Source: Eledone cirrhosa (taxonomy: Eukaryota). From it: a DNA stretch of 64,000 bases. The first letter of the stretch is position 1. The number at the start of each line of letters is the position of its first letter. Below the pieces are notes generated by a model that saw only the letters and a list, made by a program, of their open reading frames with translations, was not told the DNA's origin and searched no databases. This document shows, one piece after another, positions 20,662 through 53,233 of the stretch. Location: contig OZ024749.1 in assembly GCA_964016885.1 (NCBI GenBank), positions 20,336,001 to 20,400,000 of the forward strand, read 5' to 3'. The position numbers were made by a program, and so were the translations under genes.

Positions 20662-20724
<63 letters not shown>

Positions 20725-21210
20725 AAAGAGAAAACACAGGTAAGCATTAAGAGAAGGATTTTATCCAGGTATTTACGACCGTTTCATTGGTAAGTGCAAC
20801 CTTATATTGCTATACTGCAAATAGCAGCCACTCAGTTATAATTGTTGTTCACAGTCCAAATTTTCAAAATAGTAAGTTACTCTTGAAATAATTCTTAATA
20901 TATAGAGAAAAACATTTATTTGGAATTGTATTTACTAGTATAGAGAGAGAGGTATCAGAAGGTGAGGGGACAAACGGAATAGTATAGAGAGAGAGGAAGG
21001 GGGAAGAGGTAGGAAGTAGAGTGACAAACTGAGATGGAGGGAGGGGTAGAGGTGGAAGGATTCTTTGGTCAGTTTTAATAGCAGACTTCATGTCGTGGAA
21101 TGTAGTGAGTTAAAGAGAATTAAATTGATCATAGTGGGAGGGATGGATAGAGAGGGAGAGAGAGAGAGGGGGGAGATATAAAGAGATAAATATATATATA
21201 TATATATATA

Positions 21211-21430
21211 AAAAACATGAGAAGAAAGAAGAATACTGCGTGGTTGCACATGGATTACGTATGATAAAATTAAACCCTCATCAGTGATTTGCCAACCATC
21301 ATTGGTATCATCGCATTAAAAATCATATACCTCAGGTTGGTGCGAGCAATAACTAAAAAAAGCTATTGGGACAAGTAAATCGCGTAAAGCGAGTGAGACA
21401 AGTAAACAACATAGAAGGATAAAAGCAAAA
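21211..21430 (-). mobile_element. Partial copy of ~500-nt non-coding element (family P, permuted-hammerhead carrier)
   Basis: Closely matches 43228-43400 and 55938-56155; follows (TA)n; core CTGATGA kept, GAAA reduced to GA. Confidence 0.8.
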
Positions 21431-21655
21431 AATAAAGATAAAGATAATAATGACAAAAATAAAAGCAAAGAAGGGGGTGAGAAAGAAGAAAAGAAAAGAT
21501 AGCCAAGAAGGGGAGGGAAGGAAGGAAGAAAACGAAGAAATAGAAGAGGAATGAGGGAGAAGAGAGGGATATATGCATTGGTTTTGTGGGTAATTAAAAG
21601 GGTTTAGATACAAGAGGGTATAAAGTCTAAGTATATGTCAGTTGGTAGTAAGAGG

Positions 21656-21970
21656 TTAAGGGTTCGATTTGTAGTGCGAAAACTTCTCTTTGAGTCTATG
21701 GTTACAATAAATTGATCTTTCGATTTTATTGTTGAGTAACTTATTCTTCGAACTCAAGATGTGGAACAGCTCAAGGTCGCATAATCGACAGCTTCTCATA
21801 CCACTCCGATATGGGGGCGCGTTCGATAATTTTTTCCACTTCAGGGTGTATTGATGGTTACTTTCCCTCAGTTGCCAGGTCTTGTTTGCAAGGGTAGTTA
21901 CATAACGATGCTGGGAATGTTTCATTGCGTAACGGTGTGTATACCAACGGGCTTTAAATGTATTCAGTAT
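21656..21970 (-). pseudogene. GIY-YIG endonuclease C-terminal fragment of a Penelope-like element
   Basis: FKARWYTH...TTLANKTWQL...CRLCDLE...LLNNKIERSIYCNH, alignable by eye with 46652-46960 and 32250-32539. Confidence 0.85.
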
Positions 21971-22125
21971 GGTCACTCTACTTCCTACCTCTTCCCCTTT
22001 CCTCTCTCTTTATACTATTCCGTTTGTCCCCTCACCTTCTGATACCTCTCTCTCTATACTAGTAAATACAATTCCAAATAAATGTTTTTCTCTATATATT
22101 AAGAATTATTTCAAGAGTAACTTAC

Positions 22126-22227
22126 TATTTTGAAAATTTGGACTGTGAACAACAATTATAATTGAGTGGCTGCTATTTGCAGTATAGCAATATAAGGTTG
22201 CACTTACCAATGAAACGGTCGTAAATA
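22126..22227 (+). ncRNA. Degenerate type I hammerhead with ~75-nt stem II (mirror copy ~20770-20871, minus)
   Basis: TATT-TTGAAAA (two changes from CTGAAGA)-TTTGG...CCAAT-GAAAC-GGTC-GTA-AATA. Confidence 0.5.
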
Positions 22228-22417
22228 CCTGGATAAAATCCTTCTCTTAATGCTTACCTGTGTTTTCTCTTTTATACTCCAAGATTGAACGGAATTCTTA
22301 CAAACTTATGGAGTTACCCCTAACCGTACGGTGAAACCATCCATGAAACTGGCTTTCTTAACCAAGAACTGGATCACAATAAGCAATTTTCTGCTTCTCT
22401 AACTATATATATATATA

Positions 22418-22605
22418 GCGAGGGAAAAGTGGTAAGGAACCAGGTGGACCATAACGCACCAAAGTACTCAATACTTAGGGTAGTAGAGTGGGTAATAGGA
22501 GTAAGTAAGACCCCGACGGCTGAGCTCAAGCTGTTTCGACGGCTAATTCTGTACTGAATTAGCCGTCGAAACGGCTTGAGCTCAGCCGTCGGGGTCTTAC
22601 TTACT

Positions 22606-22610
<5 letters not shown>
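22418..22610. mobile_element. ~190-bp hairpin element (family H), copy 1, in (TA)n
   Basis: Unique arm TGGTAAGGAACCAGGTGGACCATAACGCACC...GTACTCAATAC, then a 55-bp-arm palindrome 22495-22610. Confidence 0.85.
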
Positions 22611-22641
<31 letters not shown>

Positions 22642-23138: not shown

Positions 23139-23550
23139 ACTCCACCCTGATTACACCTTCAGATTTATACCTGTGATTATTGGGGCATTGGGATATGTTA
23201 GTAACTGCCTCAATACAAATCTTGAGAAGTTAGGCTTCACAGAAACAGAAAGAACACAATTAGTTAGGAAATTACAAGTACAAGCCATTAATGGAACAGT
23301 AAAAATATGTAAAACATTCCAAAAATTTTGCATCTAATGTACAGATACAAAGCATATACACATACAACTCAAAACACACACATCCACACATACAATAGCA
23401 TCCATATCTACACATGCATGCATACATACATATCTACCTAGTTGATGTTGTGTAAATTCCAATAAGAGAGTCTTGTGTCTATGTTAGAAACCGACTCTCT
23501 CTCTATAGGTAAAACTTTGTGAAATTATAAAACCAGAAGAAATTACATAC
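23139..23550 (+). mobile_element. 3' end of non-LTR retrotransposon with restriction-like endonuclease (R4/NeSL-type), after (TACA)n
   Basis: LHPDYTFRFIPVIIGALGYV...KICKTFQKF*, then a 3' UTR shared with 44488-44740, 45170-45420 and 62440-62650. Confidence 0.75.
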
Positions 23551-25032: not shown

Positions 25033-25166
25033 GTATATATATCTGCTACCCTAAGTATTGAGTATTTTGGTGCGTTATGAAGGTCCATCTGGTTCCTTAC
25101 CACATTTCCTTAGTTATATATATATATATATATATATACATATATATATTTATATACATATATACT

Positions 25167-31554: not shown

Positions 31555-32539
31555 ATGAAAAGTACACACCTAAATGCCACTCACACTATACCCCAAGATA
31601 CCAACATAAAACCAAATTTCTCTAACTCCTCTAATATAAAGTATAGTAACTCTCAAAAAACTACTCATCATACAACTCTAATAAATGTTAATAATAAAAC
31701 TCCTAATAAACAAGCTAAAACTCCTAAATCAATAAATCTAACTAAAAATGTGCGTGGTGAGGTCATTAACATTAATCCTCCTAGTAAACATCACGATGCA
31801 TCCTATAAAAACAATAAACAACATAGAAACCGTAATAGACGAGTTACTTGGTATAATGCTCCATTTAATTTACAAATTAAGGATAATATTGCTAAAAAAA
31901 TTTTTAATATCCTAGAGAAAAACTTCCCGCCAAACCACAAATACCATCAAATCTTAAATAGATCAACAGTTACATTCTCATACTCAACAACCAAAAACAT
32001 AAAACAAAATATAAGTGCCTATAATGCATATAAATGTAAAAAAAACCATAAGTATACCACCAATACATCAAACTAACCATAATATCTCCTCAAATACAGA
32101 ATTAACGAAAGGTTGTAACTGTAGAAACAAAGCAAACTGCCCATTAAAAGGAAATTGTCTTGTTAACAACATAGTTTATAAATGTAAAGTTAAAACTAAA
32201 GATTCTATTTGCTCATATATAGGAGCTACTTCTAACAATTTTAAGGTAAGGTTTAATACCCACAAGCATAGTTTTAAAAATGCCGCACTGGCTAATACAA
32301 CATCTCTAGCAGAAAAAATTAATTGTTATAGAAATAAGAATATAGAATATGATATGACCTGGAGTGTGCTCAAAAGAGCCACCCCTTATCAAAATAATAG
32401 AAATGAATGTAGATTGTGTTCCCAAGAACTATTTGAAATAATGAAATCTAAGGATATCCTATTAAATAAGCGACAGGAATTAATTATATCGTGTAATCAT
32501 AAACTGAGAAAAACATTTAAATATTATAAACCTAATTAA
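31555..32539 (+). pseudogene. Penelope-like linker plus GIY-YIG endonuclease (family B-related), frameshifted, no RT visible
   Basis: RRVTWYNAPF...FSYSTTKN; frameshift in A-run ~32038-32045; CNCRNKANCPLKGNCL, IVYKC, YIGAT, FKVRFNTH, CRLC, LLNKRQE..SCNH. Confidence 0.9.
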
Positions 32540-41369: not shown

Positions 41370-41890
41370 TTTACGCGATTTACTGGTCCCAATAACTTTT
41401 TTTAGTTATTGCTCGCACCAACCCGAGGTATATGATTTTTAATGCGATTAAAATACCAATGATGGTTGGAAAATCACTGACGAAGGACTATTTTTATCAT
41501 ATATAACCCCGCAATATTCTTCTCTCTTCTCATGTTTTTTATATATATTTACCTCGGCTGCTTCCCCGCTCTCTCTGTTTCTCTCACCTTCTTTCGACCC
41601 CTCTGTCAGTTACACTTTCTCTCGACTGACCTCTTCCTCGCACTTCCACTCACTCACTCTCTGTTTCTCCCCTTCTCACTTCCTCCCGTTTGGCTTGTAG
41701 TGGGTCTCTTCTTGCTTACATCTCACTCACGTCGGACGGTCTGTACCTCTTTCGCTCATGAAATCCACCCAGCGTATGCTGACCGGACAACCATGTTGCT
41801 TGTTTATTTTCCTATCTTTGGTTTGCTTTTATCCTTCTATGTTGTTTACTTGTCCCCCTCGCTTTACGCGATTTACTGGTCCCAATAACT
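41370..41890 (+). mobile_element. Family P element: 493-bp monomer plus 28-bp terminal redundancy
   Basis: TTTACGCGATTTACTGGTCCCAATAACT at 41370 and 41863; permuted HHR motif 41418-41484 with damaged GAAA. Confidence 0.85.
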
Positions 41891-41973
41891 AAGCCAGCAG
41901 TATCAGAACGGCGAGAATCTATATAGACACATAAACACACACACAGACACACACACACACACACACACACACC

Positions 41974-42008
<35 letters not shown>

Positions 42009-42399
42009 TCATCAATATAAACACACACACGCATATATATATGTGTATATATGACCTCCCCCCTATATATAGAGGTCTACCGTTCCTCAGCCCCTAATAC
42101 CTCATACCACACCTCTTACATCCCCTCCCCTACCAACGACACACCTCCGCCCACAACACCTCACCTCTTTCTGCCCACCTCCCTTTTACCCACTTCCATT
42201 ACCACTTACCACAACAACCACACCGCCCTCACCACCCAGTACCTTCACACCTTTACACCTCCACCCTACCCCATGTCGCTACCTATCTCCTACCATCCAT
42301 CACGCCCTAGTCGGAGGTGAGGTGGGGTGAGGGTGGCAGCTGTGGCGAATTGTTATGTCTACTCCCCCCACTACCACTCAGCAGCTGTGGTAACTAGCT

Positions 42400-42991
42400 A
42401 CCCCTACCATCACGCCACCACCACCACCGCCACACCGCCAAAACCATCACCACAACACCTCACCACTAACATCACCATCACGCAACCACCACCACTACAC
42501 CGCCAACACCATCACCACAACACCACCGCCATCGCCACCGATGCCACAGCCGCCAACACCATCACCACAACACCACACCACCACCACCATCGCCACCGTT
42601 ACCACCACCACCACCACCACGCCTCCAACACCATCACCACAACACCACAGCACCACCACCACCATCGCCACCGTTAGCACCACCACCACCACCACGCCGC
42701 CAACACCATCACCACAACACCACACCTCCACCACAACACCATCATCATCACGCCACCACCGCCGCTACCGTTACCACCACACCGCCAAAACCATACAACA
42801 CCGCCACCACATCCCCACCACCTTCCACCATACCACCAGCACCAATACACCACCACTATCACCACAACACCGCAGCACCACCACCACCATCATCACTACC
42901 ACCAAGAACAACATCCAGCAGCAGCAACACGCCACCGCCACCACCACCACCACCAACAACAACAACACACAACCACCAACAACAACAACAC

Positions 42992-43022
<31 letters not shown>

Positions 43023-43100
43023 CACCACCACCAACAACAACAACAACAACAACACACCACTACCACCAACAACAACACACCACCACCACCACCACTACAA
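42400..43100. repeat. (CAC)n/(CAA)n trinucleotide-derived low-complexity tract
   Basis: Direct reading; internal ~65-bp duplications of CCAACACCATCACCACAACACC. Confidence 0.9.
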
Positions 43101-43185
43101 TGACACAGGACCAGTTGTTGTTCTATAGAAATTCGTTGTTCCAGTAATATTTGGGTTGTGATGTTTCACCCTGTGTGTGTGTGTG

Positions 43186-43227
<42 letters not shown>

Positions 43228-43230
<3 letters not shown>

Positions 43231-43782
43231 GAGAAGAAAGAATACTGCGTAGTTGCACATGGGTTACATATGATAAAAATAGTCCTTCGTCAGTGATTTT
43301 CCAACCTTCATTGGTATTTCGTCGCTTTAAAAATCATATACCTCCGGTTGGTGCGAGCAATAGCTAAATAAAGCTATTGGGACAAGTAAAGCGAGCGAAA
43401 CAGTAAACAAACAAGGAAGGATAGCAACGCAAAGATAGGAAAAAACAAGCGCATGGGGATCCGGTCAGCTTAAGCTGTGTGGATTTCATGAGCGGGGGAA
43501 ATACAGACCGTCCGACGTGAGTGAGATGTGAGCAAGAAGATAACCCACTACAGGCCAAACGGGAGGAAGTGAGAAGGGGAGAAGCAGAGAGTGAGTGAGT
43601 GGAAGTGCGAGGAAGAGGCCAGTCGAGAGAAAGTGTAACTGACAGAGGGGGCGAAAGAAGGTGAGAGAAACAGAGAGCGAGGAAGCAGTAAGAGAGAAAC
43701 AGACAAACGCAGCTGAGGAAAATATATATAAAAAACATGAGAAGGAAGAATACTACGTGGTTACACATGGGTTACATATGAT
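43228..43782 (-). mobile_element. Family P element: 508-bp monomer plus ~47-bp terminal redundancy
   Basis: CATGAGAAG.AAGAATACT.CGT...GGGTTACATATGAT at 43228 and 43736. Confidence 0.85.
43286..43351 (-). ncRNA. Candidate permuted (pseudoknotted) hammerhead with kink-turn
   Basis: CCAACC GGA GGTA-TA-TGATTTT taaagcgac GAAA-TACC AAT GAA GGTTGG AAAATCA-CTGACGA. Confidence 0.6.
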
Positions 43783-44029: not shown

Positions 44030-44257
44030 TAATATTAATTCAAAATATTAACAAAATAGATATTCTTGTGATCAATTATACATATTATACATATTTCAGT
44101 ACCTCTGAAATATTTATAATAAAATATAATTGATCACAAGAATATCTATTTTGTTAATATTTTGAATTAATATTAATAAATCTAGAAAATATTTTTTAAC
44201 TGTAGAGTGCTTCCAACCTATTGTAAAACTCATTCTTTGATGTATTCATTGAATCTT
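44030..44257 (+). mobile_element. Fold-back copy of the 22635-22930 family; ~70-bp-arm palindrome 44030-44175
   Basis: Arms centred on TTTCAG tacct CTGAAA; tail TAGAGTGCTTCCAA...AAAACTCATTCTTTGAT..TCATTGAATCTT shared with 22875-22929. Confidence 0.8.
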
Positions 44258-47576: not shown

Positions 47577-47751
47577 GTGGTAAGAAACCAGATAGACCAT
47601 AACGCACCAGAGTTCTCAATACTTAGGGTAGTAGAGTGGGTAATAGGAAAAGGTATGACACCGACGGCAGAGCTCAAGCCGTTTCGACGGCCTTTTCTGG
47701 ACCCAGAAATAGCTGTCGAAACGGCTTGAGCTCTGCCGTCGGGGTCATACC

Positions 47752-47758
<7 letters not shown>
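47576..47758. mobile_element. Family H hairpin element, copy 3
   Basis: Same unique arm; palindrome 47645-47758. Confidence 0.85.
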
Positions 47759-48210: not shown

Positions 48211-48345
48211 TAACGAAGGAGTTGTGGTAAGGAACCAGATGGACCATAACGCACCAGAGTACTCAATACTTAGGGTAGTAGAGTGGGTAATAGGAGAAAG
48301 TATGACCCCGACGGCTTGAGCTCTGCCGTCGGGGTCATACTTTCT

Positions 48346-48350
<5 letters not shown>
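48211..48350. mobile_element. Family H hairpin element, copy 4, centre missing
   Basis: ATAGGAGAAAGTATGACCCCGACGGC ttgagctct GCCGTCGGGGTCATACTTTCTCCTAT. Confidence 0.85.
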
Positions 48351-49780: not shown

Positions 49781-50999
49781 TTTTTTTTAGCCTCGTTACG
49801 TATAGTTCCACTTTGATTCAGTTTGTGAATGATGTGAAGGAGGATACACGTGTTAGTGCAATGTTCAGATATTTACACAGTAGGTAGATAATTCAGTTCA
49901 TTGAACTATTGGAATGATACACTTCGTCGAAACCGACTGAGATCCATTAACTCCTTTTGATTTTATATAACAAAACAAATGTTCTCGCATGAAGATCGCA
50001 GTTGCATGAAACTGAGATCGTGAGAAAAAGAATTTCGGTTTAAACACAGACACACACACGCTCCACCCCCTCAGACACCCCTACATACATTCACACTCAC
50101 GCATGCATACACCCCCTACATACATTCACACACACGCACACAAACACCCTCTGCCACTCCCGCATACAATCCCTACATACACATGCATGCATACACCCCT
50201 ACATACATTCACACACGCACACTCCCCCACTCCCGCATACAATCCCTACATACACACGCATACATACACCTACACACATTTTCACACACACACACACATT
50301 TTCACACACACACACACACACATTCCCACATGACTCATACAGACAGCCATGTGTGTGTGTGTGTGTGTATACATGCGAAATAAATCCTACATGGGTTAGA
50401 GCTGGTAAAATAAAACTAGAATATATAAAAAGATGCGTGGGTGTATGTGTTTGTTTGTGAGCGTGTGTTTCTGTGTGGGTTTAGTGTGTGTGTTTATGCA
50501 CGTATATATATACTAACAACAGTGTGTATGGGTGTGTGTGTGTATGTTTGTGTGTGTGTCTGTGAAGGTGTGTATGTATATGTGTTGTGAGCATGTGTGT
50601 GTATCTGTGTGTGTGTGTGTGTGCCTCTGTGTGTGTGTGTGTGTGCCTCTGTCTGTGCCTGTGTGTGTAAGTTGATATATAGTTAGTGGAGCGAAACATT
50701 TGACATATTTCTACTTGAAGGACTATTAAGAGGAAAATTCGTTCTCAGACTAAAGAATCATAAGTAAGACAGACTTTAAGAGGAGTCAAGTCATAACTTT
50801 ATATCTTAACAAAGACACATTTTATGATATGTCTCGTATATTTATAGAATTGCAGTTACGAAGTTCCCATAACAAAGATTGACTCGATGATATGTCTTAA
50901 CTCTTTAGCATTTTAACATATATATATATATATATGTTTATCCCGGGTTCAATAACCACAGTAAGTAAGGTACTCAATACATAGCAGAGTATATATATT

Positions 51000-51112
51000 T
51001 AATATAGAAATGGCTTCTGCAGGACTAGAACTGATTCATTCGGAGGAAAGCTTTCCTGGTGATTTCCTCCGAACAAAGCAGTTCTAGTCCTGTAGAAGCC
51101 ATTTCTATATTA
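51000..51112. repeat. ~50-bp-arm palindrome
   Basis: TAATATAGAAATGGCTTCTGCAGGACTAGAACTG...CGGAGGAAA / TTTCCTCCG...CAGTTCTAGTCCTGTAGAAGCCATTTCTATATTA. Confidence 0.9.
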
Positions 51113-51896: not shown

Positions 51897-51944
<48 letters not shown>

Positions 51945-52116
51945 CCCGTTTCGACGGCTATTTCTGGACTAAATTTCTGGACACAAATAGCCATTGAAAC
52001 GGCGTGAGCTCTGCCGTCGGGGTCTTGAACATTTTCCTATTACCCACTCTACTACCCTAATTATTGAATACTCTGGTGCGTTTTGGTCCACCTGGTTCCT
52101 TACCACTCTTCCTTCG

Positions 52117-52119
<3 letters not shown>
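51945..52119. mobile_element. Family H hairpin element, copy 5 (reversed, short outer arm)
   Basis: CCGTTTCGACGGCTATTT...AAATAGCCATTGAAACGG, then the reverse complement of the unique arm. Confidence 0.8.

Positions 52120-52857: not shown

Positions 52858-53233
<376 letters not shown>

Follow-up and report, generated by a model that had tools for sequence, protein, structure and literature searches.

The window, i.e. the whole stretch of 64,000 nt analysed here from Eledone cirrhosa (contig OZ024749.1, forward-strand positions 20,336,001 to 20,400,000), contains five members of a family of short insertions termed family H. The first unit (22418-22607) is flanked on both sides by (TA)n and is composed of an 80-nt unpaired part followed by two arms of about 55 nt, the unpaired part forming a tail on one of the two inverted arms. 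The features are given in window coordinates, with RNA positions counted from the putative RNA start discussed below:

22404..22417, no strand: (TA)n target, left flank of the first stub, read from the sequence
22418..22555, minus strand: tailed arm, the complete terminal repeat R of a Penelope-like parent (R is 138 nt long in the parent)
22418..22497, minus strand: tail of 77-80 nt between two reverse-transcription starts, on one arm only (end points r3692 and r3769 in long copies)
22547..22558, no strand: head-to-head junction with the self-complementary GTAC at its centre, in the recurrent 112-nt register
22556..22607, plus strand: tail-less arm, RNA +7 to +58, ending at the proximal start CC/TA (boundary between CC and TA), read from the sequence
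22560..22595, plus strand: 3' half of a hammerhead ribozyme within the tail-less arm, the complete ribozyme being found in the parent
22608..22637, no strand: (TA)n target, right flank of the first stub, read from the sequence
25042..25128 (approximate), minus strand: tail-only fragment of family H between TA runs
47577..47757, no strand: second stub, of a different subfamily, left arm tailed
48213..48347, no strand: third stub, arms joined through ACGGC microhomology
51943..52119 (approximate), minus strand: fourth stub, in reverse orientation, with an internal deletion in the tail-less arm

The sequence-only reading had described palindromes at 22495-22610, 47645-47758 and 48290-48350, and we find these to be nearly perfect, with two mispaired positions in 116 nt, five in 114 nt and four in 61 nt, respectively; the subfamily-specific blocks it quoted are mirrored within each copy. 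It had also interpreted each arm as the 3' half of a type I hammerhead with GAAAC, which is borne out by the complete ribozyme of the parent, except that the copy at 48290 has GAAAC in neither arm. Within 22560..22595, the 3' strand of stem II, GAAA (22568-22571), stem III with a palindromic GAGCTC loop, GUC and the 3' strand of stem I follow each other in this order, placing the predicted cut of the first stub between 22590 and 22591, after GUC. The 5' half of the catalytic core is missing from the stubs, which hold the 3' half of the hammerhead only, and an Rfam search of the stubs returned no ribozyme but only sub-threshold microRNA-type hairpins. The tailed arm of the first stub spans the putative RNA start (+1 being the A of AGTAC, 22555) to the distal reverse-transcription start (22418) and matches residues 2-50 of the parental reading frame P0003 in a tblastn search (92%). 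The TATA-like element upstream of +1 is absent from the stubs, which were probably inactive from the moment of insertion.

Several other elements surround the family H members. Directly adjoining the first stub lies an inverted insertion of another Penelope-like family with one tail (20721-22403), in which the tail-less arm of about 1.24 kb, containing an endonuclease remnant (21958-21680), is longer than the tailed arm of about 0.44 kb. Positions 1-20650 are occupied by a tandem satellite of about 20 kb with a 48-bp unit and the word CTGAGGA in most units. Sibling stub palindromes of two other families are present at 50950-51112 and at four further loci of the genome (L281, L291, L287, L288); their arms begin just before CTGATGA and keep the whole hammerhead core, and their tails have AGTATTGAGTACT in common with family H. 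Endonuclease remnants related to P0003 (37-41% identity) lie at 32081-32536 and 47047-46673, and other inverted repeats between or around TA runs are found at 44030-44175, 52858-53233 and 41376-43769. The reading frame at 23160-23300 contains IIGALG and presumably resembles the end of restriction-like-endonuclease LINEs. Elsewhere in the genome, a second abundant family (P0001; L250-L279, L300-L305) has a canonical minimal hammerhead, forms inverted pairs and shows two 3' ends, 65 nt apart, at TA.

The Penelope-like origin proposed from the window could be traced to a parent element of 3.6 kb. At locus L304 (G000:C3:245773000-245782999, 245.78 Mb), an open frame of 801 residues (P0003) begins with the family H sequence, and the element is organised as a partial tandem, pLTR-ORF-pLTR-tail-(TA)n, with a unit of 3,631 nt and an inverted tail-less copy upstream. 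Family H corresponds to the last 138 nt of the pLTR, which are also the start of the 3,631-nt unit; further partial tandems are present at L374 and L390. Long parent copies and stubs have both end points and all sampled subfamilies in common, every stub subfamily seen having long copies, and the window's own subfamily (94 matches) includes the locus L390, which continues into the ORF. Searches of P0003 against Pfam, PDB sequences and PDB profiles gave no match. Its predicted structure (pLDDT 84, 89 sequences) matches TERT and other reverse transcriptase folds, with TERT structures at ranks 1, 3 and 5, the residues YRDD, Y..YIG, R, H, E and N are conserved, and the related protein P0002 gives a sub-threshold GIY-YIG match. 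The parent thus shows the features of EN+ Penelope-like elements, i.e. a single ORF with a telomerase-like reverse transcriptase and a GIY-YIG endonuclease, pLTRs in partial tandem, an inverted truncated copy and a tail at one end.

Several motifs place the parent within this group. The DKG to DKT change of the Hydra clade is seen as MVHSDKT in 10 loci, the Hydra-type linker CxCx5C as CNCPDRSxC in most copies, the last Cys being replaced by Phe in P0003, and CxxC and CxH flank the conserved Glu and Asn as CNLC and CKH, with no CCHH and one unconserved Cys within the GIY-YIG core. The insertion into (TA)n is likewise a trait of this clade. Of the N-terminal RWK motif, RW is conserved in 88 homologues and LY stands at the same place in P0003, in a region that is frameshifted between copies. 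Judged by DKT, CxCx5C, CxxC, CxH and the lack of CCHH, the parent is a Hydra-type Penelope-like element; membership in Neptune/Nematis (DKG, CX2-5CxxC, CCHH) is ruled out by DKT and CxCx5C. Once the parent had been found, an HDV-like ribozyme, an independent SINE with an internal promoter and a restriction-like-endonuclease LINE as partner were dropped as candidates.

The parent carries a complete ribozyme, its 5' half located upstream of the part present in family H. It is built from stem I ACCCC (pairing as ACCCC/GGGGT), the core UUGANAA, a G, stem II CGGCTA (pairing as CGGCTA/TAGCCG) and a loop II of 37-39 nt. A parent with CTGANGA, as expected from the window, does not exist as such; what stands in its place is a parent with the covariant core UUGANAA and the stems named. 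Searches for a canonical-core parent failed because the core is UUGANAA and lies 54 nt away: CTGANGA within 30-38 nt of the body gave 39 and 80 matches, which we read as junction filler or joins to other families, and stem I with CTGANGA and GACGG gave a single match inside an unrelated reverse transcriptase-like frame. Genome-wide, 6,780 matches to a whole-ribozyme pattern were counted, against none for the control. From 63 distinct parent sequences, part of which were drawn with a pattern fixing TGA and A, 59 could be parsed, with the core TTGANAA in 52, CTGANAA in 5 and others in 2; in the TTGANAA cores N7 can be any of the four bases. The cut triplet is GTC in 56 and the loop GAGCTC in 57 of these 59, with stems II and III paired, and the hammerhead is the best fold or at most 1.3 kcal/mol from the best in all three sequences folded. 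The C3-A8 mismatch core of 5/59 long copies should impair cleavage. With stems I-III, a covariant core, G10.1-C11.1, GAAA and NUH all recognisable in its sequence, the parent pLTR is, by comparison, a type I hammerhead with a U3-A8 variant core. The stubs do not represent a non-LTR retrozyme, which is defined as tandem monomers each with a complete hammerhead (bioRxiv 10.64898/2026.07.22.740005), since they are single inverted pairs without the core.

Family H is highly abundant. A 26-nt body motif has 60,570 exact matches in the genome and none for the reversed pattern, and a random sample of 200 kb contained two copies. Reading by eye the first 24 insertions behind motif matches on contig C1, we found 18 short one-tail inverted stubs, 5 insertions with a long arm and a single join to a foreign element. 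Pattern counts yield 12,215 inverted stubs with one tail, to which 1,115 and 2,504 with shorter centres add to give 15,834, centres of 70-76 nt lying outside the patterns. The 12,215 compare with 223 strand matches with two tails and 250 with no tail, in which many loci are counted twice, so that exactly one arm is tailed in 96-98% of inverted stubs. The rule extends to long inverted pairs, 23/24 of which have one tail (20 neighbouring minus/plus matches of the whole ribozyme and 4 others).

The arms turn at a defined position. The sequence-only reading had placed it at stem II, but it coincides with the putative 5' end of the RNA, within loop II, or with the ribozyme cut. As many as nine further bases (AGTMCAGAAT), belonging to loop II in the parent ribozyme, separate stem II from the turning point. 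Among 91 stubs (70 with one tail, from the head of the match list, and 21 of 30 loci selected by the tail only), 56 of 182 arms end at +1 and 37 at +2 of AGTMC, together 93/182, with about 9/91 copies mis-anchored by internal mutations. For the 56 arms reaching +1 with filler beyond, the next cDNA base is A in 33, C in 15, G in 5 and T in 3. No parent templates a C beyond +1, and a C would be added by a reverse transcriptase copying the cap, as established for other retroelements. The A could be templated from a second start 4 nt upstream, in which case the RNA start would not be a single base. The putative start site itself reads TCAGT or TTAGT and is preceded, at a distance of 25-29 nt, by TATTTAAA or a similar AT-rich, TATA-like word. 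In contigs of the public run X1 the summed depth drops about 25-fold at the start base, with loose A-runs; the kind of this run is unrecorded, we read it as DNA, possibly from the assembly's own sample, and it gives no copy number. TATA and initiator-like motifs have been noted in the pLTR of Adineta vaga Penelope elements (PMC3846280). Taken together, these sequence features suggest the turning point being a capped RNA start in loop II, with a second start 4 nt upstream. Alternatively, the pile-up at AGTMC might mark a pause or processing site for cDNAs begun at the 3' repeat. AGTMC sits in a structured region, as a pause site would, and some stubs extend a few to 17 nt upstream of +1 (L066, L394, L396, L398, L401, L413, L415), which speaks against an RNA start; the non-templated C and A-runs at the arm ends, the AT-rich word together with TCAGT/TTAGT, and long copies passing straight through AGTMC all argue the other way, making the pause site unlikely.

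The junctions vary between copies, and this variety is relevant for how the palindrome arises. The common 112-nt junction occurs with either of the reciprocal spacers and as either of the loop-free hybrids, as expected if two cDNA ends pair at GTAC or GGAC. When the unpaired tail alone was the query, 25 of the 30 loci found had an inverted arm, with many different junctions and with a loop-free palindrome at GTAC in 7/30. Target-site duplications are unreadable within (TA)n; the TA microhomology postulated for the ends is supported. Head-to-head joins of H arms to other Penelope-like families are also seen (L031, L033, L034, L047, L054, L443). A join in the same direction is seen at L039, where an H arm continues into another hammerhead family at the common CAGAAT, which suggests a template jump between RNAs of different families.

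One could argue that the palindrome is inherited, either as a MITE-like DNA element or as a palindromic master RNA in each subfamily, its centre decaying after insertion. With the whole unit as query, 40/40 scored best matches were at least 99% identical over 195 nt, as this would predict, but these matches were selected by similarity to the query; the recurrence of the 112-nt junction also fits. Against it stand the many junctions of tail-selected loci, the ends, which are not terminal inverted repeats and which ORF-bearing long copies share, and a tree of arms in which tailed and tail-less arms are intermixed (25 changes versus 21.4 in shuffled data; 106 arms over just 46 columns, taken from 53/70 one-tail stubs after setting aside 17 that were short or mutated). 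An inherited palindrome is refuted by the existence of the parent and by the stubs with both arms at the cut described below, and we consider it exceedingly improbable; a MITE or DNA transposon proper was rejected because asymmetric ends and a variable centre are found where terminal inverted repeats and a fixed interior are required. With arms intermixed and without separate left and right clades, the arm sequences indicate that the palindrome is rebuilt from one arm sequence at each insertion and is not inherited, and the earlier proposal of palindromes made anew at insertion stands in this respect. Rare variants are mirrored across the arms (L137, L153, L189, L190, L192); in six mirrored rare variants inspected by eye, none was an A-to-G editing mark shared by both arms.

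Another part of that proposal, that the cDNA snaps back, is contradicted by the copies. According to this model, which resembles the self-priming published for inverted junctions (PMC3846280), the tailed cDNA folds back, copies itself and anneals to the far TA end, later flips and deletions of the centre blurring the pattern. It would account for arms mirroring each other down to rare variants and for those junctions, that of the window among them, whose spacer comes from the tailed arm; in PMC3846280, self-priming was the explanation given for palindromes found at inverted junctions. A self-copied tailed cDNA could never yield a tail-less arm longer than the tailed one. Yet the tail-less arm exceeds the tailed one in 27 of the 91 stubs (the reverse in 37, equal lengths in 27). 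The same holds for 12 of 23 long pairs, counted without one complex locus, where the difference reaches 2.5 kb (L388; the reverse in 7, unclear in 4). Tail-less arms often hold sequence missing from the tailed arm, including the copy at 48290 (48213..48347), in which TTGAGCTCT is present on the tail-less arm only. At L396, L413, L426, L427 and L448 the tailed arm has little or no body and stops in or just past the tail, and such body-less tailed arms stand opposite full tail-less arms. Loop-free palindromes and foreign joins occur, the centres lie at putative RNA 5' ends and not at stem II, and flipping would need to have affected roughly half of the copies, even young ones that are 99% identical. 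We therefore regard snap-back as very unlikely.

The two arms usually agree in subfamily. Both arms belong to the same subfamily in 56 of 59 assignable one-tail stubs (20% expected at random; 11/70 unassignable) and in 9/9 no-tail stubs (4/13 unassignable), compared to 23/31 two-tail stubs (9/40 unassignable; p = 0.007 versus one-tail). Two RNAs were used in the 3/59 discordant stubs, in the long pairs L326 and L350/351 and in the joins to other families.

A second line of evidence comes from stubs ending at the ribozyme cut. Both arms stop exactly at the predicted cut between GUC and GGGGUC, with foreign bases between them, in 93 matches, 90 of which are true, the other 3 belonging to one tandem repeat and not lying at the cut. 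A further 44 stubs have both arms at the cut with a single A or T between, giving 134 (90 + 44), compared to about 3 expected with independent arms. As controls, the same pattern form gave 3 matches (2 loci) when shifted inwards by two bases and 2 matches when shifted outwards by one base. At most 102 and 36 stubs combine one arm at the cut with a long second arm, and many of these are CpG mutants or joins at CC/GG microhomology; about 1% of stubs stop at the predicted cut. The base-exact excess of double-arm ends in genomic copies suggests in vivo cleavage by the variant ribozyme and a shared 5' end of the template for the two arms. If this reading is true, these stub ends show the hammerhead cleaving in living cells.

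Our data support a model according to which family H consists of twin-primed stubs of the parental terminal repeat, made by an enzyme that cuts both strands of (TA)n, with one RNA being copied twice, to which we assign a probability of about 0.72. With the two strands of the tract cut by the parent enzyme, two cDNAs would be primed on the same RNA, one from each DNA end. Priming at the distal site would yield the tailed arm, and priming 77-80 nt further 5' the tail-less arm; both start sites sit at a UA that could pair with a TA primer. Synthesis of both cDNAs would continue up to the RNA 5' end, with displacement of the first by the second; this end would usually be the capped start in loop II and in about 1% the ribozyme's own cut, and the two cDNA 3' ends would then be joined by microhomology or end joining. 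A stub would result if priming took place at start sites close to the 5' end of a transcript, which may be full mRNA or read-out from downstream pLTRs, or close to that of the ribozyme's 3' product. A Penelope protein was reported to cut and extend both strands in vitro, to start at two sites bounding the tail and to be a predicted dimer (PMC11167929). The two-site, two-end step, if true, explains both the inverted ends and the one-sided tail. We lean slightly towards a wider version, in which a promoter in hammerhead loop II would give an mRNA that begins with half a ribozyme, and hence cannot behead itself, and ends with a whole one cutting in vivo; the capped or cut RNA would be copied twice by a dimer, one subunit serving each start site and DNA end, as the normal mode of Penelope insertion in place of self-priming.

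The GAGCUC loop is a 2+6+1 loop, like the kissing loop of retroviruses. This raises the possibility of twin priming on two RNAs of one source locus, paired through this loop and cut as a dimeric hammerhead, with a protein dimer setting one start on each RNA. GAGCTC is kept in 57/59 parsed parents, metazoan hammerheads with a palindromic loop 3 can function as dimers (PMC4209133), the foreign head-to-head joins show that two RNAs are usable, and a pair from the same locus cut together would give the same concordance between arms. Since all subfamilies share the GAGCUC loop, the concordance of 56/59 requires pairing at the source locus; moreover, two-tail stubs mix subfamilies in 8/31, and a stable stem III of 4-5 bp lets the ribozyme fold as a monomer. 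Paired RNAs thus appear rather unlikely, and the cut-site result and the subfamily concordance together point towards a single RNA being copied twice.

The element class and the shape of the insertions are already known, inverted copies with a one-sided tail having been described before (PMC8557442, PMC3846280, PMC8969392, PMC2377424). With the EN+ elements of the Hydra clade (PMC8557442) the parent shares DKT, the CxCx5C linker, CxxC and CxH around Glu/Asn, a C-terminal GIY-YIG, the (TA)n target, partial pLTR tandems and an inverted truncated copy with a tail at one end. It differs by a unit of 3.6 kb, compared to mostly under 3 kb, by RWK, which is not seen in P0003, by the U3-A8 core and the 37-39-nt loop II of a hammerhead that is canonical in the Hydra clade, and by a tail of 77-80 nt instead of 30-40 nt, the insertions here being mostly stubs of about 195 nt (PMC8557442). 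Poseidon PAc of Anolis (PMC11167929) resembles the parent in having two reverse-transcription starts bounding the tail, an AT-rich target, a hammerhead in the pLTR and a tail that is the start of the open frame, both strands being cut and extended in vitro in PAc. For PAc, no homology between target and RNA start and no reads ending at the ribozyme cut were found, and the accessible part of that source offers no route to inverted ends. In family H, by contrast, each of the two starts lies at a UA that matches the TA target, and about 1% of stubs stop at the cut.

The Penelope elements of Adineta vaga (PMC3846280) have inverted pLTRs, an optional one-sided tail, TATA/initiator-like motifs and junction palindromes, as found here; self-priming, possibly on an antisense template, was proposed for them, and the copies analysed here contradict this and point to a capped sense template. 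Known Penelope-like hammerheads (PMC4209133) share the U3-A8 variant, G10.1-C11.1, a palindromic loop 3 and pairs on opposite strands, and family H adds a stable stem III of 4-5 bp, a loop II with the putative promoter and RNA start, and a probable genomic footprint of cleavage. A search of the open-access literature, subscription papers and supplements not included, found neither a proposal of two-end priming for Penelope-like elements nor in vivo hammerhead cut footprints for them.

In L1 twin priming, both target strands prime cDNA on one RNA, which results in an inversion. The two L1 cDNAs copy different parts of the RNA, whereas in family H the same part would be copied from two fixed sites, giving a mirror-image duplication. 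Family H contributes a putative RNA start within loop II of a hammerhead with the U3-A8 core, as well as controlled counts at the cut. The origin of inverted ends and one-sided tails, the strand copied and hammerhead cutting in cells are treated as open in the accessible parts of PMC8557442, PMC3846280 and PMC11167929, and about 16,000 short insertions now separate the models by the one-tail rule, the lack of a fixed longer arm, arms from the same template and base-exact ends.
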